Positions 10,917-58,506 of a stretch of DNA of 64,000 nt are shown piece by piece. The notes under the pieces are model-generated. The model did no database searches and was not told the DNA's origin. It saw only the letters and a program-made list of their open reading frames with translations. Source of the DNA: Gammaproteobacteria bacterium (GTDB taxonomy: Bacteria > Pseudomonadota > Gammaproteobacteria > S012-40). Positions within the stretch are counted from its first letter, which is position 1. Every line of letters begins with the position of its first letter. The position numbers and the translations under genes were made by a program. The stretch is from contig JAOUHV010000005.1 in NCBI GenBank assembly GCA_029884425.1, positions 15,791 to 79,790 on the forward strand. Reading direction: 5' to 3'.

Positions 10917-11956
10917 TTAGTTCAGTGCCGCCAAATACTGTTGGCTTTGTTGTTCGAACGAAAATTTTGCATAGTCCCGCATGGCTTTCGCTTTATTCGC
11001 CAACAGCTCAGGATGGGTAGCCAGGTCATGCAGTTGCTGTGGCAACTGTTGCTTGTCCAATGCAAATGCGCTGTGCTGAAAATCTTCAAAGGCCATGAAG
11101 GCGGGTTCAACTAGCATCGGAATGTGATAGGCGAATGCAAGATTAAATGCGCCAGATATGCCGGACTGAAGATAGCGCGGGTTGTCGCCCAGGCAGGGCA
11201 TAATCAAGTCGCATTGCTGAATGTACTGATGAAATTCAGTGTCGGAGACAAACTGGCGAAACACAATGAAGTTGTCGCGCAATTCACCTAGGCGAGCCTC
11301 GAAATCTTCACCGTCGCCATGAGCGTGACGACTGTTGCCCAGCAAAATAAATTTAATGTGTTTATCTGGCAAAGAGGAAAGCATGGCCAGCAGTTCCAGG
11401 TAGGCGCGGCGTTTGTATTCAAGTTGGCCGGGAATGCATATCCAGAATTCATTGGCTGGTTTGTGCAATTTTTGTTGTGGGTAGTTTGGGAAAAAAATGG
11501 GATAAAACGATTGCAGCTTGATGTCGTCAATGGGGTTGTTTTGCACGAGATAATCATTGAGTGCGAAAACGCGCCGAGCTTTTTTTGCCAGGGCGTGCCA
11601 GGTGCTTTTTTTAGTTTGTTAACTTCGTGACTGATTGCGCAAATGTGTAGATTTTTGCACAGCAGCATGAAAATTTGCACCATGCGGCCAGCAAAGGTGT
11701 TAACGATCACGCGCTGAATGTTGTGTTGCTTCAGGTATTTTTTCAAGCGCAGCACGGCAATAAATTGCGCAGCCCAGGATGAAGCATCGTGCAGGCGGTA
11801 AGTGTGCAATGGAATGCCGAGCTCGGCTTCGCGCTGCAGGTGACAGTCGGGAGCGACGAAGTGAATTTGATAATCAGCGTTGTGGAGAATTTTTGCTTGT
11901 GCGTACAGACATTCAAAATGGCCGTTACTAAATTCGATCGGGGCGATATTTTTCAT
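10917..11956 (-). pseudogene. Glycosyltransferase (GT-B-like), disrupted by a frameshift in an A7 homopolymer on the coding strand
   Basis: Two overlapping minus-strand ORFs (11288..11956 and 10917..11546) join into one ~345-aa protein (...ISHEVNKLKKAPGTPWQ|KKARRVFALNDYLVQNNPIDDI...). The shift is at the T7 run 11580-11586. This could be a sequencing error or a slipped-strand site. Confidence 0.55.
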
Positions 11957-32710: not shown

Positions 32711-32935
32711 AAATTTCCTCGATTATTCAGATACTGCTTGGGACTCATGTATCGGTAAATCCAGCCAAAGATAAAATTTTCTGCAGTAAACAATTGTTAA
32801 TTTCCCAGCGCTTGCCCAGATTGATGGATGAGATAGGTGTGTGCGTGCAGTTTTTTTGTTTGCGGGGCAGCGGCTTAAGTATTGCTACCAACAGGTCGAG
32901 ATACTGGAAAATTACCGGTATTTAATGAGTTGCCC

Positions 32936-34408
32936 ATGGTTCGTATTCTCCTGCTGCTGATGTTGCCGATCTCTGCCCTGGCATGGGACAGCATCGAGCA
33001 GTTGCCCATACCGGAAAGTCGGGCGATGGTGCCCCAGGAGCGTGGCACCTTCAATCAAGCGGTGACCGCAATGATGAGTGGCGACGATGCCACCGCACGC
33101 CAGTTGCTGGCGCCGATGGCGGCTTCCGGGATTACCGATGCGCAATTGTCGCTGGCTACCTTGTTATCGCGCTCGCAGGTAGAGGACGATCAAAAGGAAT
33201 CGGTTAAATGGTTCTATTTTTCCGCAAACGCTGGTGTGTGGCGTTCTCAGTTGGAAATGGCCAAAGCGTATCGGACAGGACGATATGTCGCCCAGGACAG
33301 ATTAAAAGCCTACAAATGGTTGGTGCGTGCTTTGCCCTTGGGGGGCATTGATGTTCTGCAGCAAATGGACGGGCTGGGCAAAGAGCTGTACGCAACCGCA
33401 ACGGCAGAGTTGGATAATGGCAAGACGGCGCGGGCAGTGGAAATACTGACGCCATTGGCAGAATCAGGAATGTTGCCAGCGCAAGAAAAACTGGCAGAAC
33501 TTTATGCCCAACCTCCCACCACTCAGGATAGGCGGCAAAAAATGCGGCTGTGGCTGGATAAGGCTGCCGCTCAAGGTTCACAGTCGGCGCAATATGCACT
33601 GGCGAACATGATTCTGACGATGCCAAGCACCGATGTTACAGAAAAAAATTACGCTATTTCGTTACTGGAAAAATCCGCCGCGCCCGGCAAGGCTGAAGCC
33701 CAATACCAGTTGGGGCGAATGTACATGACTGGCGATGGAGTGGCGAAAAACACCGAGAAAGGACTGTATTACTACCGAATTGCGGCTGAACAAGGTCATC
33801 GTGAGGCCCAGTACGCGTTAGGTGTGCGCTACACCTTGGGCGAGGGCGTTGCCAACGACGATTTCGAAGCCCACCGCTGGTTTAAGCAGGCTGCCAATGA
33901 AGGTCATGCCAAGGCGCAGTACAACCTTGCACTTAGCTATAAGCATGGGCTGGGAACGGCAGTACAGCCAGAAAAGGCGGACTACTGGTTTAAGAAAGCC
34001 GCAGCAGAAGGTCTGACGCGCGGTAACGATAGCAAGAAGGCAAAAAATTCAGATTTGACCAAGTTGCCGGCCGATGCCGGTAAAGGCACAAAAAAAAACT
34101 GGGTAGAGCAGGTGAACGGCGCTAAGTGGTTTGCTGCATTGCCCAAACAAGGTTTCACCATTCAGGTGGTGACAGGCAATGAAGCGGAAGCAATAAGGGC
34201 ATTCATTCAAAACAATAAGTTGGCTGAAAATAAATATTTTCACTACGTCCAGCATAGTGGCACCAATAGCCGTCATGTGGTGCAGTGGGGTTATTTCAGT
34301 AGCTACGAAGAAGCCAAAAAAGCGGCAATACAAATTTCCAAAGGTTATACCCAATTTAAGCCTTGGATCAGATCGGTCGACAGTGTCAAAAAGAGTCTGC
34401 ATAGCTAG
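32936..34408 (+). CDS. Secreted Sel1-like repeat (SLR) protein with a C-terminal SPOR (peptidoglycan-binding) domain; first gene of the stator/FliG-like operon
   Basis: Signal peptide MVRILLLLMLPISALA, multiple Sel1 repeats (AQYALGVRYTLGEGV, AQYNLALSYKHGLG...), C-terminal SPOR-like FTIQVVTGNEAEAIRAF...WGYFSSYEEAKKA. 19-nt gap to the motA-like gene. Confidence 0.7.
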   Translation: MVRILLLLMLPISALAWDSIEQLPIPESRAMVPQERGTFNQAVTAMMSGDDATARQLLAPMAASGITDAQLSLATLLSRSQVEDDQKESVKWFYFSANAGVWRSQLEMAKAYRTGRYVAQDRLKAYKWLVRALPLGGIDVLQQMDGLGKELYATATAELDNGKTARAVEILTPLAESGMLPAQEKLAELYAQPPTTQDRRQKMRLWLDKAAAQGSQSAQYALANMILTMPSTDVTEKNYAISLLEKSAAPGKAEAQYQLGRMYMTGDGVAKNTEKGLYYYRIAAEQGHREAQYALGVRYTLGEGVANDDFEAHRWFKQAANEGHAKAQYNLALSYKHGLGTAVQPEKADYWFKKAAAEGLTRGNDSKKAKNSDLTKLPADAGKGTKKNWVEQVNGAKWFAALPKQGFTIQVVTGNEAEAIRAFIQNNKLAENKYFHYVQHSGTNSRHVVQWGYFSSYEEAKKAAIQISKGYTQFKPWIRSVDSVKKSLHS

Positions 34409-34427
34409 GCAGAGGGAGAGATAGCTC

Positions 34428-35252
34428 GTGTTTATATCGTGGGACACCTTATTTGGAATGTTGGCAGGGTTCGGCCTGTTTGCCTTTGCCATTGTTTCAT
34501 CGACAGACAACGCAATGATTTTCTGGAGCGTGGCCAGCCTGGCGATGGTTATCGGTGGTACGTTTGCCTCGATCATTATTTCCTATCACTCGCGTTATGT
34601 GTTCAAAACATTTAAGGCGCTATTCGCGATGATGGTGCCCATGCAGGTTTCGCCAACAACATTGCTTGGTGATGTTAGGTTGCTGCTGGAGTGGAGTCAG
34701 GAAGTCAGACAAAACGGCACAGCGGTGTTGGATGACAAACTGGAAAATGCAAGCAACAAGATGGATGGCTTCACCAAATATGGTTTGCTATTGCTGACGA
34801 CGGGCTACAAGGGCGATGAGCTGCGTGAATTACTGGAAGAATTCAAAGAAACCATCTTTGAACGTGCACAAGTTCAGGTAGGCGTGCTGAAAACCATGGC
34901 GGCCTATGCGCCGGCATTTGGCATGATTGGTACGCTGGTTGGTTTGATCATTATGCTGGACAACTTGAAAGGGGATGTCAGCGGCTTGGGACAGGGGTTG
35001 GCACTGGCATTGATTACGACGTTATACGGTGTATTGGCAGCTAATCTGGTGTTTAAACCGGCGGCATTAAAAACCGACCAGAAAAACAATACTGCAAGAT
35101 TTAGAAATACATTAATGATCGAGGGTTTTGTGATGCTAAGTACCAAGACCGAGCCACTTAAGATGCAAGATAAATTGAATAGCTTTCTCGATCCCGAGTT
35201 GCATTTTGACATGCTCACTCCTGATGCCGGTAAAAAAGGGAAAAAGAAATAG
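34428..35252 (+). CDS. MotA/PomA-family stator protein (4-TM proton channel subunit), non-flagellar context
   Basis: Topology TM1-TM2, a ~110-aa charged cytoplasmic loop, then TM3-TM4 with PAFGMIGTLVGLI and ITTLYGVLAANL motifs. This matches MotA/PomA rather than the 3-TM TolQ/ExbB layout. Confidence 0.8.
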   Translation: MFISWDTLFGMLAGFGLFAFAIVSSTDNAMIFWSVASLAMVIGGTFASIIISYHSRYVFKTFKALFAMMVPMQVSPTTLLGDVRLLLEWSQEVRQNGTAVLDDKLENASNKMDGFTKYGLLLLTTGYKGDELRELLEEFKETIFERAQVQVGVLKTMAAYAPAFGMIGTLVGLIIMLDNLKGDVSGLGQGLALALITTLYGVLAANLVFKPAALKTDQKNNTARFRNTLMIEGFVMLSTKTEPLKMQDKLNSFLDPELHFDMLTPDAGKKGKKK

Positions 35253-35258
35253 CATCCT

Positions 35259-35975
35259 ATGTCGATTAAAAAACTGGGGCGTAGGCGCCGTGAACGCATG
35301 GAAAACAAGGATGAGGGTGAAGACTGGTTGCTTACCTATAGCGATACGGTCACGCTGATTATGACCTTCTTTGTGCTGATGCTGTCTGTGTCTACCATCG
35401 ATCAGGCAAAGTTCGATGCGGTTACCGAGGCGGTGAAAGAGCATGGTCTTTCCGGGAATGGCAAATATGTATCACCTTTTGAGGTTTTAAAAGAAAAAAT
35501 GGATCAGGTGACGACCAACTATCATCTGCAAAAAGACATGACGGTGGTACGAGAACCTAAGGGTTTGACTATCGAGTTGTCATCTTCAGCGCTGTATGAA
35601 GTAGGTAGTGCTGATATACAAGAAGAAGCCAAAAATGCCTTGAATGCTGTTGCTGAGGCCATCAAGAATTTTGAGTATCCACGCTATCGGATAGAAGTGG
35701 AAGGTCATACCGATGACGTGGCGATAAGTACACAGCGGTATCCATCCAATTGGGAATTGTCGGTACATCGTGCGACTAATGTGGTTCGTTATTTGACGCA
35801 GGAGGGCGTTCCACAAAGCAAGATGAAGGCTACAGGATATGCCGACACCAGACCTAAAGTGCCAAATTTGGACGACAACGGTGAACCAATTGCAGAAAAT
35901 CGGGCAATTAACCGAAGAATAGTTATACATGTGGAGCGTGACGACAACCCAGTCACCAAAGGGGATAAGAAGTGA
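35259..35975 (+). CDS. MotB/PomB-family stator protein with a C-terminal OmpA-like peptidoglycan-binding domain
   Basis: Basic N-terminus, single TM with the conserved Asp (LLTYSDTVTLIMTFFVLM), OmpA-like domain (NWELSVHRATNVVRYL...NRRIVI). Confidence 0.8.
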   Translation: MSIKKLGRRRRERMENKDEGEDWLLTYSDTVTLIMTFFVLMLSVSTIDQAKFDAVTEAVKEHGLSGNGKYVSPFEVLKEKMDQVTTNYHLQKDMTVVREPKGLTIELSSSALYEVGSADIQEEAKNALNAVAEAIKNFEYPRYRIEVEGHTDDVAISTQRYPSNWELSVHRATNVVRYLTQEGVPQSKMKATGYADTRPKVPNLDDNGEPIAENRAINRRIVIHVERDDNPVTKGDKK

Positions 35976-37090
35976 GTACGCAAACAACATATCACCAACG
36001 ACCGAATATGGTGCTGATGCTGATGATTGGTTTCGTTCTGCAAATGACCGTTTTTGGTGAGGTGCTGGCTGCTGAGACCGAAATCAAGCAGATCCGCTAC
36101 GGTGCACACAAGTCGGAAAATATGGCCTATGCCGATGAGTTAATGAAATTTAGTGAAATGCTGAATTCTGAGCAAATACTGTCGATGGCCGAATTGAATA
36201 AGATGGATTTCGCGGTTCGCTCGGTGGCGTTTTATCGCATTGGTGATCGACAGAATAAGTTGTTTGATCGTCATTTTTACGAAACGATCGAGCAGAAGAT
36301 GATTAACAAATTCACAGGTTTGAATCGTTTCTCCATACATGAATGTTTTGAATGTAAGACGACGCGGGTGTTGCTCAAGGAAAAGCAATTTTCAGTGCTT
36401 CGCCAATTGGATTCTAACGAGAGTCTAAAAGAGCTGGGTGAAAAAATAGGAGTAGATCACTTTATTCTGTGGGATGCCTACATGCACAAAGACAGCCCTA
36501 TGCTCAATATTCGTGTTGTGAGTGCGGCGAGTGGACAGGTTCGCTGGAGTCGGCAATATCAGGGTGAGCAGCAATTGCAAGAACTCAATTGGGAGTTTTA
36601 TACCTCGGTTTGGGGTGTTGAGGCGGTACGTCAAGCCAAAACAACGGCGAACTATGATTCTGTGGTTACGCCCATCATCGCGGTGGGTTTTCGTCGATTG
36701 GCAGAGTCGACGATTTCCAAGCGCTTATTCTACGGATATGGAGCTGAAGCTTTTTTTAACACCGAGGGACGCGCCGAAATTGATATATATGGTTTTGATG
36801 TTAACGGCCGCGTAGCGATTGAGTTGGATCCATCCCTGGGGATGGAAGATAAAACCTACGGTAACTGGTTGGCTTATTTTTCAGTGGGACAGGCATTTTT
36901 GTTGAATACGCCGACCCTGGTGATGCGTTCAGGTATCGAAATGCGGATCAATAAAAAGAGTTTTATCGATTTGGGAACGGTGACAATAAAAGAGAAAGAA
37001 TTTGAAGTGCGTGCCAATAGTAAATATGTCAGCAAGGCAACCATTGGCGGCACAAATTATGATCTAACCATTGGCTACCGATTTCAATGA
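35972..37090 (+). CDS. Secreted protein of unknown function, 372 aa, with a beta-rich C-terminal half
   Basis: Signal peptide; C-terminus ...NYDLTIGYRFQ is beta-strand-like. Translationally coupled to its neighbours by 4-nt overlaps. Confidence 0.45.
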   Translation: MSTQTTYHQRPNMVLMLMIGFVLQMTVFGEVLAAETEIKQIRYGAHKSENMAYADELMKFSEMLNSEQILSMAELNKMDFAVRSVAFYRIGDRQNKLFDRHFYETIEQKMINKFTGLNRFSIHECFECKTTRVLLKEKQFSVLRQLDSNESLKELGEKIGVDHFILWDAYMHKDSPMLNIRVVSAASGQVRWSRQYQGEQQLQELNWEFYTSVWGVEAVRQAKTTANYDSVVTPIIAVGFRRLAESTISKRLFYGYGAEAFFNTEGRAEIDIYGFDVNGRVAIELDPSLGMEDKTYGNWLAYFSVGQAFLLNTPTLVMRSGIEMRINKKSFIDLGTVTIKEKEFEVRANSKYVSKATIGGTNYDLTIGYRFQ

Positions 37091-37698
37091 GGATAGCAAT
37101 GATGAACAGAAAAAAATGGATAATTGGGCTGGCACTTCTGATGATATTGTCCGCATGCGGTACAACCGAAGAGCGACTGGATGCTGCTGAAAGTCAGGTA
37201 GCGGAATCATCGTCAGAAGAAGATTTGCCCGTGACACCCGAAGGAACGGCATTGACCAAGCAGCCAGGTATGATCAAGATTGAGCGGCACACACCAGGTT
37301 ACACCATCAGTATGATGCTGGATGCCACTGACGACAATGTATATTTTGTGATGGACTTGCCACCTGAGGAGCTGCAAAAGAATCAGGAGCCAGAGAATTC
37401 AAAGCAAACACCACAAAATAAGGCGTCCCAGTCGGTGCAAGACAATGGTTCTGGTGGTGCCAACAAACATGTCCTTTATGCCCAGACCTATTTTTTTGAA
37501 AAAAAATATGATCGCGCCATGAACGAAATAGATCGTTCGCTGGAAAAAGATCCAAACAATGCGGTGGCATATTCATTGAAAGGGTCGATCCACTATAAGC
37601 GTGGTGAAAAATCTAAAGCAGTACAGGCGTGGGAAAAGTCCCTGGAAATTGATCCAAACCAGGATAACGTCAAAAAAATGCTAAATAATCTGAAATAG
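37087..37698 (+). CDS. Outer-membrane TPR-repeat lipoprotein
   Basis: Lipobox LLMILSAC followed by G at +2; two C-terminal TPR repeats (YAQTYFFEKKYDRAMNEIDRSLEKDPNNAVAYSLKGSIHYKRGE...). Confidence 0.65.
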   Translation: MRIAMMNRKKWIIGLALLMILSACGTTEERLDAAESQVAESSSEEDLPVTPEGTALTKQPGMIKIERHTPGYTISMMLDATDDNVYFVMDLPPEELQKNQEPENSKQTPQNKASQSVQDNGSGGANKHVLYAQTYFFEKKYDRAMNEIDRSLEKDPNNAVAYSLKGSIHYKRGEKSKAVQAWEKSLEIDPNQDNVKKMLNNLK

Positions 37699-37712
37699 TT
37701 GGGTACGACACA

Positions 37713-39875
37713 ATGGCGTATTCGGTGAAGATAAGACTGGGTTCAATGCGGTGGCTGTTGCTGGGAATGATCGGCATGGTGTGGATGCCTGTGGCACAGC
37801 CGGAGGAAGAAACCCAGCGTGTTGCCGTAAGCCAGGTTGAGCAATCGCGATTTGACCGGGATCTTGAAGCCCGTTTAAGTCGAGACATTAAGGCATATTT
37901 GGATCACGATTTCTTTATCGTTCAAGCAAAATCTCTGCTGGAAAAATTAAACGCCTATGAAACCAGTAAGCAAAAAATAACCGTTCCGGTAGAACCATCG
38001 GCGCAGCAAGCCAAAGCGCAGCAGCAACAGGATGCAGCACGACAGGAGTTGCTGAATCAAATGGAGTTGGAAACAGAAGACGGCATTAATGCGCAAAATG
38101 CAGAGCAAGCCGAAGATGTGAGCGATCTTGCCTTGCCAGGCTTGCCAGTTTCAGAACAAACATTTGCACAGCAAACCAATGCGCAACAGAAACAACGTCA
38201 GGCTCAGAAACAGCCAATGATGTCGGCGCCGGTTCCACAAATGACCCCTGCATTTGAAACGCGTGAAGAAACCAAAAAAGAGTTGAAGGACTCGCGCATT
38301 GATATCAAACAATTGTCCGTCAAAGTGGTGTTGGATAATCATGTAACACCCGAGCAGGAAACGTTTATTCGCAATCTGGTAATTGAAAAAGCCAATGTGA
38401 ATTTTATCCGTGGCGATGAGTTACGGCTGGTCAGAACAAATTTTCCGGGTGCGACGGTGCTTGATCCCAAGCCTGTTGAAGAAAAGGCAGAAGATAAAGA
38501 AGAAAAATCAGTTGAGCCGGAAAAACCGCTGCCAACGGAGGCGGAGAAAGATGCACAACAGCGCGCACTGGCGTGGCTGGAACAATATTGGCCATATCTC
38601 GCAGCAATCTTAGCGCTGGTGTTGTTGTGGTTGATGTTGCGGCGCAACAATAAAGCTCAGACTAATGCCCCATCGGCTCAAACCACACCGGTGAGTGATT
38701 CCAAAGATAAGCTGGATGCATTTATCGAAAAATTGAGCTTTGCTCAGGATAATGTGGCCGACCAGAAATTGCGTGCACTACGCGAAGAGCTGGTGAGTAT
38801 GACGGTGACTGAGCGAAACCTGTTTACCGGGCAAATGGTGGATTGGTTGAATGCCGGCGGTCAGGAGGATGTGGCGCGTGTCGCGGCGGTAGTGAATCTC
38901 GTCGGTCCCGGCTTAATGGTAGGTTTGCTCAAGGGACAGATCGACGGCGAGAAATTAATGGGCCTGTTGGCCATGGCTGAGGAGTTGGCGCGGGATAATT
39001 CGCCATCTGAGTTGATGGAAAAAGTTGAACAGGCCTATCAAACCCTGGCACGTCGGCGCTTGCAGGAAAATATTACTGAGGAACATAAAATTCGGCCGTT
39101 CGATTTCCTTGAGCGCTTGAATGATGATCAAATTCTGTATTTGTTAAATGACGAGCGTATGCCTGTGCGTGCGTTGGTTTATTCGCAATTGCCAGCGGAG
39201 CGTGCAGCTGGATTGCTCAAGCGCATTGGTGGTGATGATCGTGCCGCCTTGGCCATGGAAATCAGTCGTTTTTCGCATTTGCCGGCAGCATCGTTCCGCG
39301 ATATCGCAAATCGTTTGGCGCGCAAGGCAGTGGATGTGCCCAGCTTTGCCAATATTGCGGTGGATGGCGTGGATGTGCTTATCGGCATGCTGGATCATCT
39401 CGATAGTTCTGAGGAAACAGCATTGTTGCTCAACGTCCGTCAGACCAATCCCGATTTGTACTATCGCATCAAGCAGGTGTACATCAGCTTTAATGATCTG
39501 GTGAGCTTGCCTACATTGGCGCTGAAGAATTTGATTCGCGAAGTCAGTCGCGAGGATTTGGCGATGGCTTTGCACGATGTTGACGATACTTTCCGTGATA
39601 CGATTCTGGCTTCTATGCTTGAGCGGCCGCGTGCCATGCTGGTTGCTGCGATCCGGGACTTGAAGGATGTGAATCCGCTGGCAGTGAATGAAGCCAAGCG
39701 CAAGGTAGCGCGCCGCGCCCGCTCCATGCTCAAAGCCGGTGAATTTAAATTGCCGTCGCCAGAAGCCAAAACCGCACAATCGACGCCTAAGCCCAAAGCG
39801 GCAACGGCTGAGGCTCCGTCAGGCAAGCCCGCGCCGCCTGCACCTCCTCCCCCGCAAGCGCCACCATCCAAATAA
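37713..39875 (+). CDS. Two-TM inner-membrane protein with a FliF-RBM3-like periplasmic segment and a cytoplasmic full-length FliG-like (N/M/C) module: a candidate minimal FliF-FliG-fusion-like rotor protein
   Basis: TM1 at ~aa 13-27; periplasmic aa 28-292 with a Gln/Ala-rich region and IDIKQLSVKVVLDNH...RGDELRLVRTNFPG (compare FliF IERLSVAVVVNY...RGDTLNVVNSPF); TM2 LAAILALVLLWLML; FliG_M-like IRPFDFLERLNDDQILYLLNDERMPVRALVYSQLPAERAAGLL; FliG_C-like FNDLVSLPTLALKNLIREVSREDLAMALHDVDDTFRDTILASMLERPRAMLVAAIRDL...; Pro-rich tail. Confidence 0.6.
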   Translation: MAYSVKIRLGSMRWLLLGMIGMVWMPVAQPEEETQRVAVSQVEQSRFDRDLEARLSRDIKAYLDHDFFIVQAKSLLEKLNAYETSKQKITVPVEPSAQQAKAQQQQDAARQELLNQMELETEDGINAQNAEQAEDVSDLALPGLPVSEQTFAQQTNAQQKQRQAQKQPMMSAPVPQMTPAFETREETKKELKDSRIDIKQLSVKVVLDNHVTPEQETFIRNLVIEKANVNFIRGDELRLVRTNFPGATVLDPKPVEEKAEDKEEKSVEPEKPLPTEAEKDAQQRALAWLEQYWPYLAAILALVLLWLMLRRNNKAQTNAPSAQTTPVSDSKDKLDAFIEKLSFAQDNVADQKLRALREELVSMTVTERNLFTGQMVDWLNAGGQEDVARVAAVVNLVGPGLMVGLLKGQIDGEKLMGLLAMAEELARDNSPSELMEKVEQAYQTLARRRLQENITEEHKIRPFDFLERLNDDQILYLLNDERMPVRALVYSQLPAERAAGLLKRIGGDDRAALAMEISRFSHLPAASFRDIANRLARKAVDVPSFANIAVDGVDVLIGMLDHLDSSEETALLLNVRQTNPDLYYRIKQVYISFNDLVSLPTLALKNLIREVSREDLAMALHDVDDTFRDTILASMLERPRAMLVAAIRDLKDVNPLAVNEAKRKVARRARSMLKAGEFKLPSPEAKTAQSTPKPKAATAEAPSGKPAPPAPPPPQAPPSK

Positions 39876-39880
39876 CCGCA

Positions 39881-39909
39881 AAGAGAGCTATTGGCTCTCT
39901 TTGTTTTTG
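39881..39909 (+). terminator. Rho-independent terminator ending the stator/FliG-like operon
   Basis: aagagagc-tattg-gctctctt hairpin plus a T-run. Confidence 0.7.
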
Positions 39910-40241
39910 GGCGAATAAAATCTTTTGATATCACGCAGATAAAAGCGCTTTGCTAAAAAGCGGGCAATAGTGGCAAATGCGTCACAAAATATACTCTGCC
40001 GAAAGCGTAGGATAACCCATTGTATTTATAGAAAAAAAATTTCTCCGTAGATCAAATATTAATTTTGTCACACATATTAAGCTTTGTATTACAAAAGTTG
40101 TTGAAAAAACGGTCGATGCAGTATTAAGGCCCGCTTTCTGCAGATGTAACTGTTGGACTGAACAAGGATTTGGCAATTTTGTCTGTCTGAATGTTGCACA
40201 TTAACGGCGCTGAACCCAGGACGGTGACTCGTACTCTGTGA

Positions 40242-41480
40242 TTGTTAATTGGACTGTCTATGTCAAAAGCTAGCAAACCTGTGATCCATAGGTTGCGGTG
40301 CTGCGTTTTAGTGGCATTGCTGGCTTTGCCGTTGCTCAGTTGGGCGGAGGACCGGGTGATGTCAGTCTATACGATGGGAGCTGTGACCATCCTGCCAAGT
40401 GTAGGCCTGGAATACCGGCATGACGATAATATTTTTTCCGCCAACCAGGGTCAGAAGGCATCTGATGTAGGTGTAGCAAATTCGAGCATTGCCGCCAAAA
40501 TCAGCAATGATATTAGCGAGGGCGCGCTGTTGTACTCGGTAGAGAAAGGCACTTATCAAAGCAGCCCCGAGGATGACTATCTGGATCAGCGAGCAGGACT
40601 TGGTTTTCATCATGCGTTTCGGCGATGGGCCATCATTGATCTCGCGTTAGGGCAAGATCAGTTGCACGAAGCGCGTGGGCAAGGTTACAGCCAGGGTAAA
40701 GCTGATTTACTGCCAGCGCCGGATTTATATGTCACAGATACGGCGAATTTCCTGTTTCGGCTGGGGACGCGGCGATCACAAGGTATGTTTGAATCGCAAT
40801 TGGCGGGAACTTCGCTGCGCTATACCACACGTGAGGCACAAACCGCGGGCCGGAATAACGATTACATTTCCGGACGACTGACCTACCATTTTAATCTTTC
40901 CAGCAAAACCAGTTTGCTCGCAGAAACGCGTTATGGGCAGTACGACTACATCAACGAAACCTCGCTCATTCGTCGTGACAGCAGTGAGCAGCACTATTAT
41001 CTCGGGTTGTCGTGGGAGCTCAGTAGTCTTAGTCGAGGTTCCATCAGAGTCGGACAGCAAAAAAAGATATTTGTTGATCAGGCATTGATGGCGGATAGCA
41101 GCAATAGTTGGGAAATGAAGCTGTTCTGGAAGCCAACACCACTGGCGAGCATCAAATTCGGTACGTCTGCAAAAAATCAGGAAAGTGTGGGAATGGGCAG
41201 TCATGTTTACAGTGAGGCTGGATTTTTCGCGATCAAAAACTCACTGACCAAGCGGTTGGGCATGGATATGAGTACGCAAATCACCAAGAACAGCTATCGC
41301 CCAAGCGGACGCAACGAGCTGTTGGGAGCAGTTGCAGCCAAAGTGATTTATAGCTCGAATCGCTGGATACATCTAGATTTCGGCATAGATCATGAACAAC
41401 GTAGAAGTGACCAGGCGATGATGAATTATCGCCGAAGCATCGTCAGCATGGGGATTCGAATCAGTCCGAAAGATGATTAA
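40242..41480 (+). CDS. Outer-membrane beta-barrel protein, putative partner of the short Wza-like exporter
   Basis: Signal peptide, alternating amphipathic beta-strand pattern throughout. 8-nt overlap with the downstream Wza-like gene. Confidence 0.5.
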   Translation: MLIGLSMSKASKPVIHRLRCCVLVALLALPLLSWAEDRVMSVYTMGAVTILPSVGLEYRHDDNIFSANQGQKASDVGVANSSIAAKISNDISEGALLYSVEKGTYQSSPEDDYLDQRAGLGFHHAFRRWAIIDLALGQDQLHEARGQGYSQGKADLLPAPDLYVTDTANFLFRLGTRRSQGMFESQLAGTSLRYTTREAQTAGRNNDYISGRLTYHFNLSSKTSLLAETRYGQYDYINETSLIRRDSSEQHYYLGLSWELSSLSRGSIRVGQQKKIFVDQALMADSSNSWEMKLFWKPTPLASIKFGTSAKNQESVGMGSHVYSEAGFFAIKNSLTKRLGMDMSTQITKNSYRPSGRNELLGAVAAKVIYSSNRWIHLDFGIDHEQRRSDQAMMNYRRSIVSMGIRISPKDD

Positions 41481-42225
41481 GCCAAACGTAGCACGGATAT
41501 GGATTGGGATATGGCTGTGCTTGCTGGTGGCAAGTGCTGGTGCGTTTGATCGCGCCTACACATTGGGTACCGGTGATGTAGTGTCTATTCAGGTATTTGG
41601 TGAACCGGAATTAAGCCTGCAATTGCGCATTGATGACAGTGGAAATATTGCCTATCCCCTGTTGGGAGAGTTACCCATCGCTGGTCAGACATTGAATGGA
41701 CTGGAACAAATTTTGATTACTCGCCTTAAAGGTGGCTATCTGATCGATCCCAAAGTCAGTGTGTCGGTGATCGAATATCGGCAGTTTTTCATAAATGGCG
41801 AAGTCAGCAAGCCCGGAGGGTATCCATACATTCCCGGTTTGACTTTGCGCAAGGCGATTGCTCTTGCCGGCGGCATGACTGAATTGGCGTCGGTTGATCG
41901 TATTACCTTGATTCGTGAACACGATGTATCACGCACCGAAGTTTCAGTAGATATGGAAGCCAAGGTATTGGCTGGCGATATCATTACGGTTAAAGAATAT
42001 AAAAAAATATTTATTCATGGCGAAGTAAGGAAACCGGGAAGCTATGGTTATAGCCCTGACTTGACCGTGAGAAAAGCGATCGCGTTGGCTGGCGGTTTAA
42101 CTGAGCGAGGTTCGGAAGGCAAGGTGACATTGCAGCCGGACAACGGAACAGGAAAGCGCGTCGAATTGCTGGACGAAAAAGTGACCCCCGGGGATTTAAT
42201 AACCGTTGGTGAACGGTTTTTTTGA
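41473..42225 (+). CDS. Short Wza-like periplasmic polysaccharide export protein (Poly_export plus SLBB domains, no C-terminal OM helix)
   Basis: 250 aa with signal peptide, a PES motif region and duplicated SLBB (ITLIREHD.../KVTLQPDNG...). Lacks the Wza D4 helix. Confidence 0.85.
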   Translation: MIKPNVARIWIGIWLCLLVASAGAFDRAYTLGTGDVVSIQVFGEPELSLQLRIDDSGNIAYPLLGELPIAGQTLNGLEQILITRLKGGYLIDPKVSVSVIEYRQFFINGEVSKPGGYPYIPGLTLRKAIALAGGMTELASVDRITLIREHDVSRTEVSVDMEAKVLAGDIITVKEYKKIFIHGEVRKPGSYGYSPDLTVRKAIALAGGLTERGSEGKVTLQPDNGTGKRVELLDEKVTPGDLITVGERFF

Positions 42226-42234
42226 GGGATGTAG

Positions 42235-44391
42235 GTGAAAAAACAGGATCATGCACGGCAGGAGCAGCCTGACGACGAGATCGACCTGCGCGAATATTGG
42301 CGAGTAATTAATCGACGCAAGTGGTCGATATTGGCGTTCGCCGGTAGTGTTTCACTGATTACCACGTTGGTGGTCTATTCTTTATCCCCGATATATCAGG
42401 CGACAGCGACTGTATTGATCGAATCGCCACAAAAAAATGCGACCAGTTTGGAGGAGGTTTATGGACTGGAACGAGTCGGCAATGAGTTTTTCAAAACCCA
42501 AGTCGAGATACTGAAATCCCGCGAATTGGTTGATCGAGTTGTCGGTGAACTAGGGCTGTTGGAGAATCCTGAATTTTCCATGAAAAACAATAATGGATAT
42601 CGGGAGAAGTTAGCATCTATTCTTCCATTTCTCCATCAGCCAGAGAAGGAATTAACAGTTGAAGAGCGGAAAAATGAGATTGTTCGTAGCATCTCGAGTA
42701 GTTTGAATGTTTCTGATATTCGCGGTACCCAGCTTGCCAAAGTTAGTTTTGAAAGCCATGACCCGGTGATGGCAGCCAAAGTAGCTAATAAATTTGTCGA
42801 TGCCTACATTGAGTACAATTTTGATATTCGTCTGGCAGCCCGAGACAAGTCATTGGCATGGTTAAATGAACGGTTGGGGCCGCTTAAAAATTCGTTGTCT
42901 GAGTCAGAAAAAAAGCTGCAGCAATATCGTGAACAGCAAGGGTTGGTGGATGTCGAGGGTGTCAGGAGTCTGGTAGCCAAAGAATTGAATGAAATCACCG
43001 TGGATTTTGTTGAAGCCAGGACAAAGCGGGCGCAGCTGGAAAACGTGCTTCAACAAATTGGAAATGGTGATGAATGGATCAACAATCCGACGATACTAAA
43101 TCACCCTGCGATGCAGAAATTGATTGGTCAGCGGGCCGATGCAGAGCAGCAGTTGTCCGAATTGGGGAAAAGGTATGGGGCAAAGCATCCGAAAATGGTT
43201 GCGGCACAGAACCAGCTTCTGGCCGTTCAGAAAAATATGCAGCAGCAGCTTTCAGGTGTGGTTGAAAGCATTAAAAAGGATTACCTGATAGCAAAAAATA
43301 ATGAAAATTCGCTACAAAAAAACATGGATAAAGTAAAGGAAGAAGTCCAGGATATAAATCGCAAGGAGCATCAGCTTAATGAGCTTGTGCGAGAGGTGGA
43401 TGCCAATCGCAAAGTATATGAGTCATTTTTAACCCGGTTTCAGCAAACGGGAGCACTTGGAAGTTATGATCAGGTGAATATTCGTTTGGCTGAAGCTGCG
43501 GCCGTCCCTATTTCTCCATCAAAGCCTAACAAAAAACTTATTATCGCACTGTCATTTATGGCAAGTATTATGTTGGCTGTTATGGCTGCTTTCTTTCTTG
43601 AGTTTATCAATAACGGTGTTCGCCGGATTGAAGATGTTGAAAATAAATTGTCGCAGCGATTGCTGGGTATTGTTCCCCAGGTTGCGGTTGATGATGAAAG
43701 CAGACTAAAACCAGAGAGCATATTTTCGGATGAAAATCTTCGTTCTATGGCGGAGTCAATGCGTGCCGTGAGAACGGCCATGTGTCGTTCAGGTGCGGAA
43801 AAATCCAAAATTATTTTGGTCACATCCTCTTTGCCTGGCGAGGGGAAGACGACGGTGTCATGCGCGCTTTCCTATGCATTCGCGCAGATTGAAAGGGTGC
43901 TGTTGATTGATGCGGATATGCGGAAGCCATCGGTTAGTAAACTATTTTCCATTCCGCATAAGCATAGGGGCTTGAGCAATCTGATTGTTGGTGAGCCCAA
44001 TGTTAGGGATTGTTTTTTAGTGCAGCCAAATGCCAATCTGACGGTTGTTCCATCTGGGGTTGTTCCTGCAAATCCATCGGAGCTTCTATCTAGCGATCGG
44101 TTTGCTATGATGCTGAAAAAATTGGCGAAACATTACGATCGAATAATTATTGACTCACCACCGATTCATGCAGTCAGTGATGCACTGATTATTTCTCGTC
44201 TGGTGGATGAGGTGGTGTATGTCGTTAAATCGGATGCGACGCCCTTGCCGGTTGTGAAGGAAGGTATTGCCCGTTTGCAGCAGGCGGATGTCAAAATGGC
44301 CGGGGTTGTTCTGAATCATTTTAACGTACGAGAGGCTGATTACTATCAGTACTACTATGGCAGTTACGACTACACTACAGCAAAGAGCTAG
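42235..44391 (+). CDS. Wzc-like polysaccharide co-polymerase / BY-family tyrosine autokinase
   Basis: Wzz-like N-domain with two TMs and a coiled-coil periplasmic region, Walker A SSLPGEGKTT, Walker A'/B, C-terminal Tyr cluster YYQYYYGSYDY. Confidence 0.88.
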   Translation: MKKQDHARQEQPDDEIDLREYWRVINRRKWSILAFAGSVSLITTLVVYSLSPIYQATATVLIESPQKNATSLEEVYGLERVGNEFFKTQVEILKSRELVDRVVGELGLLENPEFSMKNNNGYREKLASILPFLHQPEKELTVEERKNEIVRSISSSLNVSDIRGTQLAKVSFESHDPVMAAKVANKFVDAYIEYNFDIRLAARDKSLAWLNERLGPLKNSLSESEKKLQQYREQQGLVDVEGVRSLVAKELNEITVDFVEARTKRAQLENVLQQIGNGDEWINNPTILNHPAMQKLIGQRADAEQQLSELGKRYGAKHPKMVAAQNQLLAVQKNMQQQLSGVVESIKKDYLIAKNNENSLQKNMDKVKEEVQDINRKEHQLNELVREVDANRKVYESFLTRFQQTGALGSYDQVNIRLAEAAAVPISPSKPNKKLIIALSFMASIMLAVMAAFFLEFINNGVRRIEDVENKLSQRLLGIVPQVAVDDESRLKPESIFSDENLRSMAESMRAVRTAMCRSGAEKSKIILVTSSLPGEGKTTVSCALSYAFAQIERVLLIDADMRKPSVSKLFSIPHKHRGLSNLIVGEPNVRDCFLVQPNANLTVVPSGVVPANPSELLSSDRFAMMLKKLAKHYDRIIIDSPPIHAVSDALIISRLVDEVVYVVKSDATPLPVVKEGIARLQQADVKMAGVVLNHFNVREADYYQYYYGSYDYTTAKS

Positions 44392-44397
44392 GCGATT

Positions 44398-45090
44398 GTG
44401 TTTGTAGGAAAGATGAAAAAAATCGTAATTGTATTTGTCATGGTTTTCATCGCATATGTTGTCGTTCAGGCGAGTCGAATATTTTTAAGCAGTGCCAATG
44501 CATCCAGTGTTTACGCCCAGATTGCTTATTTGGAGTCCAAGCCATCGGTAGATGGCTTTCAGTGGCAAACTTTGGCGGAGAAGCTAAGTTTTTCACGTTG
44601 GCTGAATGGGGATAGCCCAGATTATCGTGATGTAGAGCAAATGCTTCTGCTGCGGTCGGGTGAAGTGCGGCCTGGAAGTGTCCTGGAGCAATATCGATTA
44701 CTGCTCAGGCAGCGGCCTTCGTGGCCCTATGCATGGTTAAATCTTCTGGTAGCCAAAGGTCACGCCAAAGAGTTTGATGAAGAATACCATCACGCCTGGG
44801 CGCGGCTGGCGGTGTTGGCACCGTGGGTCAAAAAAGTGAATGCCGCACTTCTGGTGGAAGGTTTGCGTGATTGGGATGAATTGGACGACGCTACCCGTGC
44901 ATTGGTAGTCGATGTTGTCGCAAACGGCTTGTCTATGCATCCCTCAATTGTCGACGTACAGTTGAAAGAATATCAACGGAGGTTCCAGCTTTGTGCGGAA
45001 CTGGAGGTAAATCAACGCGCCGTGCTGTCATGCACTGACGATGCATCATTCGATGCCGTTTTATCAACAGGCGACGAAGCGCATGAGTAG
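44398..45090 (+). CDS. Hypothetical membrane-anchored protein, 230 aa
   Basis: N-terminal TM; no recognisable motif. Confidence 0.35.
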   Translation: MFVGKMKKIVIVFVMVFIAYVVVQASRIFLSSANASSVYAQIAYLESKPSVDGFQWQTLAEKLSFSRWLNGDSPDYRDVEQMLLLRSGEVRPGSVLEQYRLLLRQRPSWPYAWLNLLVAKGHAKEFDEEYHHAWARLAVLAPWVKKVNAALLVEGLRDWDELDDATRALVVDVVANGLSMHPSIVDVQLKEYQRRFQLCAELEVNQRAVLSCTDDASFDAVLSTGDEAHE

Positions 45091-46564
45091 TCCTTATTTC
45101 TCTCATGAACGATGTGGTGTTGAGAAAGCGATTTTTACATTGCTGCTGGTCGTTTTGTTTATTGCGCCATGGCCACTGGGAAGTAATCGGGATTGGGCAT
45201 GGCCGGTGATTTCTGTCTTGCTGGCGATTGCCGCCTTGCTCTATGTTTGTTTTTACGGTATTTGCTTCACGGCCAGTGCGGCGCTGCGACAGGCGCGCTG
45301 GGCTGTTGCTTGTTTTTTGTTGCTCATTATCTGGCAAGTGCTGCAATCGTTGCCATTACCTACTGCTTGGATAAATGCTCTGTCGACTGGTGCGGCACAA
45401 CTTTATTTGGCAACAGATGCGCGACTGGAAAATGTGCCGTTATCGCTTGACGCTTATGCGACGTCGCTGGCTTGGATGAAGACGCTGACTTATGTGCTGA
45501 TGTTTGTGTTGTTGTTGCAACTGACAACCAATCGAACTCGTCTTCAATGGTTGTTTGGGGTGGTGGTGATCAGTGGCTTGTTGCAGGCGTGTTATGGCAG
45601 TTTAATGGCGTTGACCGGCGCGTCTCAGGGTGTCTTTATTCAAAATAATGATGTTTCATCAGCCACAGGCAGTTTTGTGAATCGCAATCATTTTGCGGGG
45701 TTCCTAGGTTTGTGTCTGGCAATGGGCACGGGCTTGTTGGTGGCAAAATTATCAACGACACCGGCAACAAATTTGCGCCAGTTTGCGCGCCAATCCCTTG
45801 TTACATTGCTGGGTGAAAAGGCGCGTCTACGCCTAGCGCTGGCGATGATGGTGATTGCATTGGTGCTGAGTCACTCCCGAATGGGGAATAGCGCATTTTT
45901 TATCAGTTTGTTGCTGACGAGTGTGCTGGCGTTGGTAGTGCTGTGGTGGCGACGCAAGCGCAATGGCAATCGGCGACATCATCGTCACTGGCGACCGGTG
46001 ATATGGCTAGTGACCAGTTTGATGGTGATTGACATTGCGATTGTTGGTGCATGGTTTGGGGTCGATCGAGTGGTTGAGCGCTTGCAAAATACCTCCATGC
46101 AGACTGAGTCCAGGGATGAGGTTAATCAGTACGGAATGGCGGTGCTGGAGGATTATTGGCTCACTGGGGTGGGCGGCGGAGCCTATTACGTGGTGTTACC
46201 AGGCTATCAAGATGAGAAATTCACTGGATTTTATGACCAAGCTCACAATGATTACCTGCAGTTTGCCATAGAACTGGGGGTGCCGGCCGCTATAGTTTTG
46301 GCAATGGTGGTGTTTTTGGCGCTGGCGGCGGCTTTGAAGGCGCTGTTGTTGCGCCGTTCCACGTTTTATTTTGGGGTGGCATTTGCAGGATTTATGGCTG
46401 TTTCGGGTTTATTGATGCACTCATTTGTCGATTTCAATTTGCAGATTCCTGCCAATGCGCTTTATTTTGTGACTGCGTTGGCGTTGTGTTTTATCGCTGA
46501 AACACTGGAGTCGAAGCGCTACCATCGTGGCGATGTGCCCACCCATGGAGAGCATTCATCATGA
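45083..46564 (+). CDS. O-antigen ligase / Wzy_C-family polytopic membrane protein (polymerase or ligase-like)
   Basis: ~10 TMs, FVNRNHFAGFLGLCLA and SHSRMG loop motifs typical of the Wzy_C family. An alternative upstream ATG lies at 45041. Confidence 0.65.
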   Translation: MSSPYFSHERCGVEKAIFTLLLVVLFIAPWPLGSNRDWAWPVISVLLAIAALLYVCFYGICFTASAALRQARWAVACFLLLIIWQVLQSLPLPTAWINALSTGAAQLYLATDARLENVPLSLDAYATSLAWMKTLTYVLMFVLLLQLTTNRTRLQWLFGVVVISGLLQACYGSLMALTGASQGVFIQNNDVSSATGSFVNRNHFAGFLGLCLAMGTGLLVAKLSTTPATNLRQFARQSLVTLLGEKARLRLALAMMVIALVLSHSRMGNSAFFISLLLTSVLALVVLWWRRKRNGNRRHHRHWRPVIWLVTSLMVIDIAIVGAWFGVDRVVERLQNTSMQTESRDEVNQYGMAVLEDYWLTGVGGGAYYVVLPGYQDEKFTGFYDQAHNDYLQFAIELGVPAAIVLAMVVFLALAAALKALLLRRSTFYFGVAFAGFMAVSGLLMHSFVDFNLQIPANALYFVTALALCFIAETLESKRYHRGDVPTHGEHSS

Positions 46565-47160
46565 AAAAATATCTGGTTGTGCTGATTTTGTTTGGCTGGT
46601 TGTTGGGTGCGCCAGTTCATGCCGGTGTGGCAGAGGATATTCGTGCTGGGGTGTCGTACAAAACGGCAATTGCCAAAGGTTTGCGGGCGGGTGAAACTAT
46701 TGAACAGGTGTTGCGACAAGCGTTATTTGCTGCCCCCAAGCAAAAAGCGGCGGTGCTTGCAGCTGCATTAAATACTGCGCCGAAGATGGCTGATCGTATT
46801 GTGCGTGCCGCTATTGGCATGGGTATCCATGCGGGCGATATGGTGAAACTGGCGGTGCGGGTTTTGCCAAAGCAATCTGAGCTGATTGTTGCGGCGGCGG
46901 TTGATGTTGCTCCAGCGAAATTGTCGCAAATATTAAAAGGCGCAGTGGCGGGTGGAATGTCGCAAGCTTCTGCAGTGGAAGCGGCAATAAAGCAAATGGG
47001 TAATTTGGCGATGGAGGGTCCGATGACTGCGGCATTGCGAAATAACAAAGCACTGGACGCAGTAGAGCCCGAGCTGGAAGAAGACGCCGTTGCGATGCCG
47101 GTAATGATTGTTATTCCGCCCAGCCGTGGTGGTGATGCGGATGTGGTTAGTTTTAACTAG
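46561..47160 (+). CDS. Secreted Ala-rich protein with internal ~33-aa repeats
   Basis: Signal peptide MKKYLVVLILFGWLLGAPVHA; repeats AAPKQKAAVLAAALNTAPKMADRIVRAAIGMG / VLPKQSELIVAAAVDVAPAKLSQILKGAVAGG. Confidence 0.4.
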   Translation: MKKYLVVLILFGWLLGAPVHAGVAEDIRAGVSYKTAIAKGLRAGETIEQVLRQALFAAPKQKAAVLAAALNTAPKMADRIVRAAIGMGIHAGDMVKLAVRVLPKQSELIVAAAVDVAPAKLSQILKGAVAGGMSQASAVEAAIKQMGNLAMEGPMTAALRNNKALDAVEPELEEDAVAMPVMIVIPPSRGGDADVVSFN

Positions 47161-55439: not shown

Positions 55440-55634
55440 TCAGGTGTCGTTGCTCTGTGGAGGAGCGTGCTGATCCAGATTCGGGGTTTCGTTGGTCGGT
55501 ATTTTGTAACTTTCGTCTGCCCAGGCGCCCAGGTCAATAAGCTTGCAGCGTTGGCTGCAGAATGGTCGCCACTTGGATTGATTATTCCAGGCAACATCCT
55601 GTCCGCAATGAGGGCACTGAACAATGGTGGTCAT
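55440..55634 (-). CDS. yacG: DNA gyrase inhibitor YacG (zinc finger)
   Basis: CPHCGQ...[17 protein letters not shown]. Confidence 0.85.

Positions 55635-58429: not shown

Positions 58430-58506
<77 letters not shown>

Follow-up and report, generated by a model that had tools for sequence, protein, structure and literature searches.

Whether a motor-like gene cassette can be tied to the export of a surface polysaccharide is the question raised by one locus of a gammaproteobacterium (GTDB lineage S012-40). In this locus, an operon encoding MotA, MotB, and a FliG-like protein is followed on the same strand by an operon for polysaccharide export. The locus lies in a stretch of 64,000 nt (hereafter the window; assembly GCA_029884425.1, contig JAOUHV010000005.1, positions 15,791-79,790), and coordinates are those of the window unless another locus, numbered with L, is named. 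An earlier inspection of this DNA (hereafter the sequence-only reading) proposed, from their adjacency, a functional link between the two operons, on the analogy of Myxococcus motors that move polysaccharide machinery. We consider, with a probability of about 0.8, that the export operon encodes the polymerization and export half of a Wzx/Wzy-type exopolysaccharide (EPS) or capsule pathway with a composite outer-membrane translocon, and that it is transcribed separately from its neighbor. The answer to the attractive hypothesis of motor coupling is negative.

Organization of the export operon

The export operon comprises six tightly packed genes on the + strand (40260-47160). The sequence-only reading had counted five, and all of its open reading frame (ORF) positions were reproduced. 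OPX denotes the outer-membrane polysaccharide export family and PCP the polysaccharide co-polymerases; BY-kinase stands for bacterial tyrosine kinase.

40260-41480, +: BBP2_2 outer-membrane barrel; the ORF opens at TTG 40242, likely start ATG 40260
41473-42225, +: OPX protein classified by sequence as Class 3 / D1-D2-D2, with a Poly_export domain and a pair of SLBB domains, 250 aa
42235-44391, +: PCP-2a with a C-terminal BY-kinase (Wzc type), 718 aa, with Wzz, GNVR, and P-loop kinase domains
44398-45090, +: N-terminally anchored protein, distantly VpsP-like, 230 aa; NF038257 match below cut-off, one transmembrane segment
45083-46564, +: Wzy_C-family polytopic membrane protein; the ORF opens at 45041, likely start 45083
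46561-47160, +: secreted Ala-rich repeat protein, 199 aa, last gene of the operon; signal peptide, 20% Ala

Neighboring genes overlap or lie at most 9 nt apart throughout. The barrel stop overlaps the OPX start by 8 nt (ATGATTAA), and gaps of 9 nt and 6 nt separate OPX from Wzc and Wzc from the VpsP-like gene, respectively. The Wzy_C gene probably begins at ATG 45083, which overlaps the VpsP-like stop by 8 nt (ATGAGTAG), and its junction with the Ala-rich gene is a 4-nt ATGA overlap. A convergent endonuclease I gene begins 5 bp past the last operon stop.

The barrel had been described before as a 412-aa protein translationally coupled to the OPX protein. The barrel and the 8-nt overlap stand, but the start of translation is most likely ATG 40260. 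This start yields a protein of 406 aa, equal in length to the orthologue in the related locus L040, with a signal peptide (MSKASKPV...LLSWA, cleaved before ED). In the public annotation (P0027, 373 aa), the barrel begins within the mature protein and lacks the signal peptide.

A short OPX protein and its predicted barrel partner

The barrel belongs to the BBP2_2 family of Pfam (PF10082, E 4e-24). Its AlphaFold2 (AF2) model has 18 strands (predicted local distance difference test score, pLDDT, 80.5), the number also found in EpsX, ExoB, WzpB, and AlgE (PMC9601211). Fold searches, which might have placed it nearest to polysaccharide porins such as AlgE and PgaA, did not separate it from other large barrels, and the sugar porins ScrY and LamB were similar too. 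The pairing of barrel and OPX genes is kept in four loci (the window, L040, L110, and L112), and close homologues of the window barrel occur only in the window's own clade. The barrel is the predicted porin partner of the short OPX protein.

In Pfam, the OPX protein matches Poly_export (PF02563, E 3e-22) and, in two stretches that correspond to two SLBB domains, PF10531 (E 7e-26). The Pfam scan gave no Wza_C or GfcC match, and the length of 250 aa lies within the class limit of ≤280 aa. The protein aligns to residues 63-290 of the 359 residues of E. coli Wza. Its chain ends right behind the second SLBB domain, and the D4 helix with which Wza spans the outer membrane has no counterpart in it. 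The gene immediately upstream, whose product has 18 strands in the model, lies within the five genes in which an outer-membrane barrel of at least 16 strands is expected for the class. As judged from its sequence, the protein is a Class-3 OPX protein (Poly_export-SLBBn without Wza_C/GfcC; Saidi 2022), or D1D2D2 in the other scheme (Schwabe 2022). The domains and the Wza alignment support the earlier view of a short Wza homologue that lacks the membrane-spanning helix and is paired with an integral barrel of its own.

The best solved relative of the OPX protein is WzaB of Myxococcus xanthus (9n9a; E 3e-20), itself a Class-3 OPX protein. The two C-termini, PGDLITVGERFF in the window and PGDIVFVPESFF in WzaB, align with each other (GERFF versus PESFF), and the orthologues of L040 and L112 likewise end in RFF. 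In WzaB, the Phe203-Phe204 tail is needed for binding to the WzpB porin and for secretion, as established by microscale thermophoresis and complementation (PMC12819527). The OPX protein of the window has no lipobox; a likely signal peptidase I (SPI) site lies between AGA and F, and the signal peptide of the L040 orthologue contains no Cys. These sequences indicate that the protein is likely secreted but not lipidated.

Inner-membrane and accessory proteins

The Wzc protein contains Wzz (PF02706), GNVR (PF13807), and AAA_31 domains in Pfam. It matches TIGR01005 and TIGR01007 in NCBIfam, and passes the BY-kinase cut-off of the latter with 175 bits against 108. Transmembrane segments at residues 32-50 and 435-453 flank the periplasmic Wzz/GNVR domain. 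The kinase carries Walker A (GEGKTT), A' (VLLIDADMR at 555), and B (IIIDSPP at 637) motifs and ends in a Tyr cluster, YYQYYYGSYDY, with seven Tyr at 703-713; the Walker A motif and the cluster are present as quoted earlier. The CxGNxCR(S/T) signature of Wzb, a low-molecular-weight protein tyrosine phosphatase, occurs in no frame of the window.

The membrane-anchored protein noted after Wzc is there, with a single transmembrane segment. It matches the VpsP model NF038257 (E 7e-7) with 29 bits against a cut-off of 125 and has no Pfam match. A partial homologue with 38% identity occupies the same position in L040, and a search of 5.8 billion proteins recovered only the protein itself. Pairwise BLAST with the positional counterpart in L112 was not significant under composition correction and found no relatedness.

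The last two proteins agree with their first descriptions as a Wzy_C protein and a secreted Ala-rich repeat protein. The former matches PF04932 (E 1e-17), has 11 hydrophobic segments predicted to span the membrane, and has a homologue in L112 (29% identity). From its sequence, it is expected to be either a Wzy-type polymerase or a WaaL-like ligase; PF04932 covers both, and NCBIfam gives no assignment. The Ala-rich protein has a signal peptide and four P-x7-(I/V)(A/V)AA(I/V/L) repeats and belongs to no Pfam or NCBIfam family. The Ala-rich protein of L112 (L112 771-1544) also has four such repeats, with starts at residues 59 and 74 in both proteins. Composition-corrected BLAST found no similarity between the two; the comparison of the repeat motifs suggests that they are related. 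The Ala-rich protein may be a conserved accessory of modules with a BBP2_2 barrel and a short OPX protein.

Proposed translocon and its known relatives

In the pathway that we propose, repeat units linked to undecaprenyl pyrophosphate (Und-PP) would be made and flipped by genes elsewhere in the genome. The Wzy_C protein would polymerize these units under the control of the Wzc-type PCP-2a, whose cycles of autophosphorylation at the Tyr cluster would gate the assembly. The short, non-lipidated OPX protein would form a ring in the periplasm through which the polymer then passes, and the Phe-Phe tail at its C-terminus would dock it onto the BBP2_2 barrel with its 18 strands, the presumed outer-membrane pore. 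The VpsP-like anchored protein and the secreted Ala-rich protein would be conserved accessories. The gene content, the domains, the fold of the barrel, the Phe-Phe tail, the arrangement of the operon, and its distribution among relatives come from the analysis itself; the substrate, the polymerase role, the assembly of the complex, and the location of the biosynthetic genes are the parts of this pathway that we infer.

Composite translocons of a short OPX protein, a barrel, and a PCP-2a were described in 2022 and dissected in 2026 (PMC9601211, PMC9603273, PMC12819527), and the structure predicted here from sequence matches them, including the Phe-Phe docking tail. Like the EpsY/EpsX and WzaB/WzpB/WzcB systems of M. 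xanthus, the operon has a short OPX protein (Poly_export and SLBB) without the membrane-spanning helix, an adjacent gene for an 18-stranded barrel, a PCP-2a/BY-kinase, and the Phe-Phe tail on the OPX protein. Unlike WzaB, the OPX protein is of the D1D2D2 type, with two SLBB domains, and carries an SPI signal peptide instead of a lipobox. The barrel differs from those of M. xanthus in belonging to the BBP2_2 family, and the M. xanthus BPS and Eps loci include glycosyltransferases (GTs), Wzx, and Wzy, though split. The cluster would be a further instance of the third route of polysaccharide export across the outer membrane, defined only recently, in which a short periplasmic OPX protein works with a dedicated barrel. 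It would also extend the Phe-Phe docking tail of WzaB to distant D1D2D2 OPX proteins that are not lipidated and have BBP2_2 barrels as partners.

The E. coli Wza-Wzb-Wzc system of group 1 capsules and colanic acid likewise has a PCP-2a in which the Walker A, A', and B motifs are joined by a tail rich in Tyr. In contrast to Wza, the window OPX protein has neither the D4 (Wza_C) helix nor lipidation, a separate barrel is predicted to provide the outer-membrane pore, and the window has no Wzb. The vpsL-Q genes of Vibrio cholerae include the vps-II genes vpsM-vpsN-vpsO-vpsP, which encode, in this order, a barrel, a short OPX protein, a BY-kinase PCP, and a small anchored protein. The order barrel, OPX, kinase, and small protein in the window mirrors this arrangement, with the weak VpsP match at the fourth position. 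The window differs from the vps region in having neither an adjacent phosphoglycosyltransferase (PGT) of the VpsL type nor a GT/Wzx cluster like that of vps-I.

Absence of biosynthetic genes around the operon

Almost every window ORF of at least 150 aa was scanned with Pfam, and none proved to be a GT, Wzx, or sugar-nucleotide gene, as the sequence-only reading had stated for the surroundings of the cluster. The neighbors have housekeeping functions instead: glyQS, groEL, dsbD, accC, prmA, dusB, purH, a GGDEF protein, efp, petABC, and endonuclease I, and further DUF3422, a multicopper oxidase, coaE-zapD, pilD, ispB, obg, and proB. A further 7.5 kb rightward on the source contig (murJ, ribF, ileS, lspA) contains none of these biosynthetic genes either. 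The frameshifted GT that had been placed at about 11 kb was recovered in part: a sub-threshold match to the N-domain of GT4 (E 0.004) lies at 11288-11956 on the - strand, and nothing was found on the other half. The region 10917-11956 (-) consists of two overlapping ORFs, only the upstream one of which carries the GT4 signal, and its GC content of 47% is the lowest of the first 30 kb.

A published survey lists 453 couples of a short OPX protein and a barrel, including VpsN/VpsM of V. cholerae, and leaves 287 of them unassigned to a pathway as only a PCP is encoded nearby (PMC9601211). Polysaccharide pathways of M. xanthus are split by insertions of 18 kb to >1 Mb (PMC9603273). Since short OPX/barrel pairs often have only a PCP nearby, the missing GTs near the operon are not unusual. 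L112, an unrelated high-GC contig, carries the same six-component set (an Ala-rich secreted protein, a BBP2_2 barrel, an OPX protein ending in RFF, Wzc, an anchored protein, and a Wzy_C protein), and its 12.8 kb contain neither a GT nor motor genes. The occurrence of this set in an unrelated contig indicates that the six genes are a recurring, self-contained module for polymerization and export. The module is thus defined as a GT-less unit and includes a previously unnoted Ala-rich protein with P-x7-AAAV repeats.

The lack of GTs near the module in both the window and L112 can also be explained by an export-only operon like that of group 4 capsules, which would re-route the Und-PP units of another glycan, e.g. 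the O-antigen of lipopolysaccharide. The seven-gene gfcABCDE-etp-etk operon of E. coli is the precedent: it has an outer-membrane barrel (GfcD), an OPX protein, and a BY-kinase but no GTs or flippase, and the capsule is built from O-antigen units of the strain that are made elsewhere (PMC8592465). The 287 couples with only a PCP nearby are in keeping with such operons. However, the window operon carries its own Wzy_C protein, which suggests dedicated polymerization or ligation. Pfam and NCBIfam scans of the operon proteins revealed no homologues of GfcA-D, Etp, or YjbH, and GfcE is a Class-1 OPX protein, whereas the window protein belongs by sequence to Class 3. Moreover, the distantly related barrel of L111 adjoins a Bac_transf PGT and a UDP-glucose dehydrogenase, so dedicated loci with related barrels do occur. 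We regard the re-routing of another glycan as unlikely, although it survives better than the other alternatives.

Junction between the two operons

Two features separate the motor-like operon from the export operon.

39879-39908, +: intrinsic-terminator-like hairpin (CAAAGAGAGCTATTGGCTCTCTTTG) and T-run, directly 3' of the FliG-like stop
39909-40259, +: AT-rich spacer, putative promoter and 5' leader of the export operon

The hairpin has 14 bp followed by UUUUU and a folding free energy of -17.9 kcal/mol (z -3.9), and none of 200 shuffled sequences folds as well. It marks the end of the motor-like operon. From the FliG-like stop at 39875, the distance is 366 bp to TTG 40242, as given before, and 384 bp to ATG 40260. 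The spacer is indeed AT-rich, with a GC content of 39% against 52% for the window, and probably holds the promoter and 5' leader of the export operon. Parts of it, among them an ACAAAAGTTG block, are conserved in L040, and L040 has a terminator hairpin and U-tract of different sequence at the same place after its FliG-like gene. The terminator hairpin, the 384-bp spacer with 39% GC, and the analogous terminator in L040 suggest that the export operon is transcribed separately from the MotAB/FliG-like cassette.

A promoter scan found no sigma-70 consensus site in the spacer, and the upstream regions of the two operons have few 9-10-mers in common, about the number expected by chance. A regulatory RNA in the spacer was considered and rejected, as an E-value scan of 39800-40350 gave no Rfam family; at the Rfam gathering threshold, the whole window contains only a tRNA (58433-58506).

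Conservation of the adjacency

For the comparison of neighborhoods, 26 relatives of the FliG-like protein were collected by a word-indexed search, and a profile built from them retrieved loci with flanks of up to 10 kb on either side, 39 of them from genomes and 69 from metagenomes. All window proteins were compared with these loci by tblastn and phmmer, together with GT2, GT4, OPX, Wzi-like, PGT, Ugd, and Wzc queries from other loci.

Export genes adjoin the cassette in only three loci, L040, L110, and L038. The FliG-like protein of L040 is 70% identical to that of the window, and the layout is the same, with a 354-bp spacer and an intact export cluster of 53-79% identity. In L110 (1-5136; 63% identity of the FliG-like protein), inserted TauE and AF_1016 genes separate the FliG-like gene from the barrel. 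The L110 barrel has its last ~45 codons in another frame, by a frameshift or an assembly error. Outside the window's clade, polysaccharide genes were found beside the cassette only in L038 (83-9416; single amplified genome AM-315-M03 of Fibrobacterota). Directly upstream of its cassette lie genes for a GT2, a methyltransferase, a GT4, a 418-aa OPX protein, a Wzi-like barrel, and an iron-containing alcohol dehydrogenase (Fe-ADH). The OPX and Fe-ADH genes are on the opposite strand, and these polysaccharide genes are unrelated to those of the window.

In about 100 loci, the cassette has no adjoining export genes. The next-closest relatives, L113 (47% identity) and L001-3 and L042-48 (41-43%), keep the cassette order but have unrelated genes downstream, namely HipA, a two-component pair, a GGDEF protein, and Nramp. 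Since close homologues of the barrel are found only in the window's clade, this 41-47% clade runs the cassette without the export module. The Oceanospirillales loci have housekeeping neighbors common to them, e.g. fumarase, SodB, Maf, and PhoX, and no export genes were found in the other Fibrobacterota-like loci or in five further contexts from distant family members. Grouping by shared flanks gave about 16 independent contexts, two with OPX genes within 10 kb and about 14 without.

The proposed link thus fails the comparative check of the neighborhood in most respects: the next-closest relatives, and about 100 loci besides, do not have the two clusters side by side. Since the adjacency is confined to the close clade, terminators stand at the junction, and about 100 loci lack export genes, the adjacency is a lineage-specific gene order and not a conserved functional coupling. 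On these data, polysaccharide export is not a general partner of the rotor-stator cassette.

The functional link, in which the MotAB/FliF-FliG-like cassette would power the adjacent export machine by ion-motive force and rotate, gate, or move the complex or the polymer, can be weighed on these data. The same-strand adjacency persists in the window, L040, and L110 despite a barrel identity of only 42-53%, and both units are alike in GC content (48.3-48.4%). In L038, the GT2, GT4, OPX, and Wzi-like barrel genes lie 0.2-9 kb upstream of the cassette. The two OPX-associated contexts out of about 16 exceed the ~0.1-0.2 expected, in a rough, post hoc estimate, if OPX genes occur in ~1% of 20-kb neighborhoods, a background itself roughly estimated from 4257 OPX proteins in 6607 genomes. 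At a background of ~3% for any polysaccharide locus, however, two of 16 are unremarkable (P about 0.09, estimated post hoc). The Agl-Nfs and Agl-Glt systems of Myxococcus provide a precedent for an ion-driven, stator-type motor that acts on surface polysaccharide (PMC3858216). Agl is a motor of the TolQR/ExbBD type without a FliG/FliF-like rotor, and its link to Nfs/Exo rests on genetics and imaging; in the window, no conserved synteny supports such a link.

The evidence on the other side is broader. The ~100 cassettes without OPX, Wzc, GT, or PGT genes appear autonomous, have variable and mostly housekeeping or signaling neighbors, and come from Ectothiorhodospiraceae-like metagenome-assembled genomes, Thalassolituus, Oleispira, Bermanella, Oceanobacter, and others. 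Conversely, the export module is found without the cassette in L112 and L111, and the 41-47% clade has the cassette without this module. Within the clade of the window, terminators stand at the junction in the window and L040, and unrelated genes intervene in L110; in L038, the OPX gene is on the opposite strand and the Fe-ADH gene intervenes. The upstream regions share no promoter motif beyond chance. We therefore consider a coupling of the two machines improbable. The proposal that a non-flagellar rotor-stator cassette was recruited beside the export machine in this lineage and, independently, in one Fibrobacterota lineage, where it would assist the machine mechanically by rotating or translocating the Wzc/OPX/barrel complex or the emerging polymer, also appears quite improbable; if true, polymer secretion or secretion-driven surface movement would depend on ion-motive force.

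Evidence against the proposed pathway and remaining alternatives

Several observations weigh against a separately transcribed polymerization and export operon with a composite translocon. The OPX protein is not a lipoprotein, whereas WzaB requires lipidation to oligomerize; since ~30% of Class-3 OPX proteins are SPI-secreted, the missing lipidation is compatible with membership in the class. The Arg-Arg motif by which WzaB contacts the PCP (Arg106-Arg107) is not conserved. The sequence does not tell a Wzy_C polymerase from a WaaL-type ligase. The completeness of the pathway is assumed, since neither the window nor the 7.5 kb beyond yielded an initiating PGT, a GT, Wzx, or Wzb. As to separateness, the adjacency with the cassette is kept in all three close-clade contigs with downstream sequence (the window, L040, and L110), and in L038 the cassette lies near OPX, Wzi-like, and GT genes in a second, independent case.

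A decaying, non-functional remnant of a once complete EPS locus would account for the absence of GT, Wzx, and Wzb, for the possibly degraded GT4 at about 11 kb, and for the apparent frameshift near the C-terminus of the L110 barrel. We reject this explanation as very improbable. All six ORFs are intact and tightly coupled and keep their catalytic and docking motifs, the full-length L040 orthologues with 53-79% identity imply purifying selection, and the same GT-less set occurs in the unrelated L112.

Least probable are an EPS system of the PEP-CTERM/exosortase type (XrtA/XrtB), suggested by best NCBIfam names (EpsL, EpsE, EpsF, EpsG) that belong to exosortase-associated loci, and a plain diffusion porin unrelated to polysaccharide export, suggested by the fold similarity to ScrY and LamB: the cluster is not filed under the former because the matches are far below the cut-offs (EpsL 38 against 275 bits, EpsE 143 against 263) and the Pfam-scanned ORFs of the window include no exosortase gene, and the latter is rejected because the barrel gene overlaps the OPX gene, the pairing is kept in four loci, and the family is BBP2_2, not a general porin family.

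The neighboring rotor-stator cassette

The neighbor of the export operon is the more consequential finding: a widespread and apparently undescribed five-gene cassette (34428-39875, +) with a FliF-FliG fusion and its own MotAB stator.

32882-39875, +: motor-like block outside the export operon, six proteins (Pfam)

The block encodes a Sel1/SPOR protein, MotA, MotB, a 372-aa secreted protein, a tetratricopeptide repeat (TPR) lipoprotein, and a 720-aa protein (37713-39875) with FliG_M and FliG_C domains in Pfam. In the AF2 model of the 720-aa protein (pLDDT 72), the cytoplasmic ~350 C-terminal residues correspond to FliG over its full length (Foldseek 8umx_B, E 1e-10). The N-domain, periplasmic and with two long β-hairpins that flank a disordered loop, matches the RBM3/β-collar region of the MS-ring protein FliF (Foldseek 6sd1, 7bk0, and others; E 1e-5 to 5e-4; target-normalized TM-scores of about 0.45-0.48). 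A single transmembrane helix joins the two parts. Since the model and the Foldseek matches contain both the collar and the full FliG part, the protein is predicted to be a natural FliF(RBM3/collar)-FliG fusion. In a phmmer alignment to Thermotoga maritima FliG, the fusion reads Ala-Ala at one residue pair, which we take to correspond to D288/D289 in E. coli numbering. MotB has plug and OmpA domains, and the channel Asp is conserved in the stator. Compared with the flagellar rotor and its MotAB stator, the cassette thus has FliG-like and FliF-like parts fused in one protein, is accompanied by the TPR lipoprotein and the ~370-aa secreted protein, and has no other flagellar genes near it.

At E≤1e-30, an exhaustive HMMER search with the fusion gave 47 cluster representatives; at E≤1e-10 the number rose to 484, with some ordinary FliG proteins among them. 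Of the best 150 matches listed, most have lengths of 550-780 aa, and their alignments run on from the collar region to include FliG_C. The five-gene core, which consists of the genes for the 372-aa-type protein, the TPR lipoprotein, the FliG-like protein, MotA, and MotB, is present in most of the ~110 fetched loci that are long enough to show it, and its order varies by clade. In the literature searched, no description of a FliF-FliG fusion cassette was found, and nothing relevant on FliG paralogues or on a FliG-like protein with MotAB tied to exopolysaccharide.

Several minor features accompany the cassette. L115 (3575-12971; 36% identity, on a 13-kb contig) is possibly a variant cassette: it has unk354, a TPR protein, and the FliG-like fusion, followed by a TraF_2/PorP_SprF-like barrel and two large proteins in place of MotAB. 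Sel1-repeat proteins turn up beside both the cassette and the export type of unit. The Sel1/SPOR protein (32882-34408) is encoded first in the cassette, both in the window and in the 41-47% clade. A Sel1 protein also follows the fusion gene in L119 (12340-13746), and a Sel1/Cds6_C protein follows the BBP2_2 barrel in L111 (11227-12471).

Genes for cyclic di-GMP turnover lie near the cassette in several lineages, which could be chance. A GGDEF protein (26302-27492) is encoded 6 kb upstream in the window, a PAS-GGDEF gene lies directly downstream in L045 (11261-13180), and a gene with GAF and HD_5 (HD-GYP-like) domains lies directly upstream in L037 (5125-6210) and L105. Apart from the cassette, CoaE and ZapD domains occur on one ORF of 501 aa at 55631-57136 on the - strand (499 aa in the public gene call), which looks like a fusion of two normally adjacent genes.

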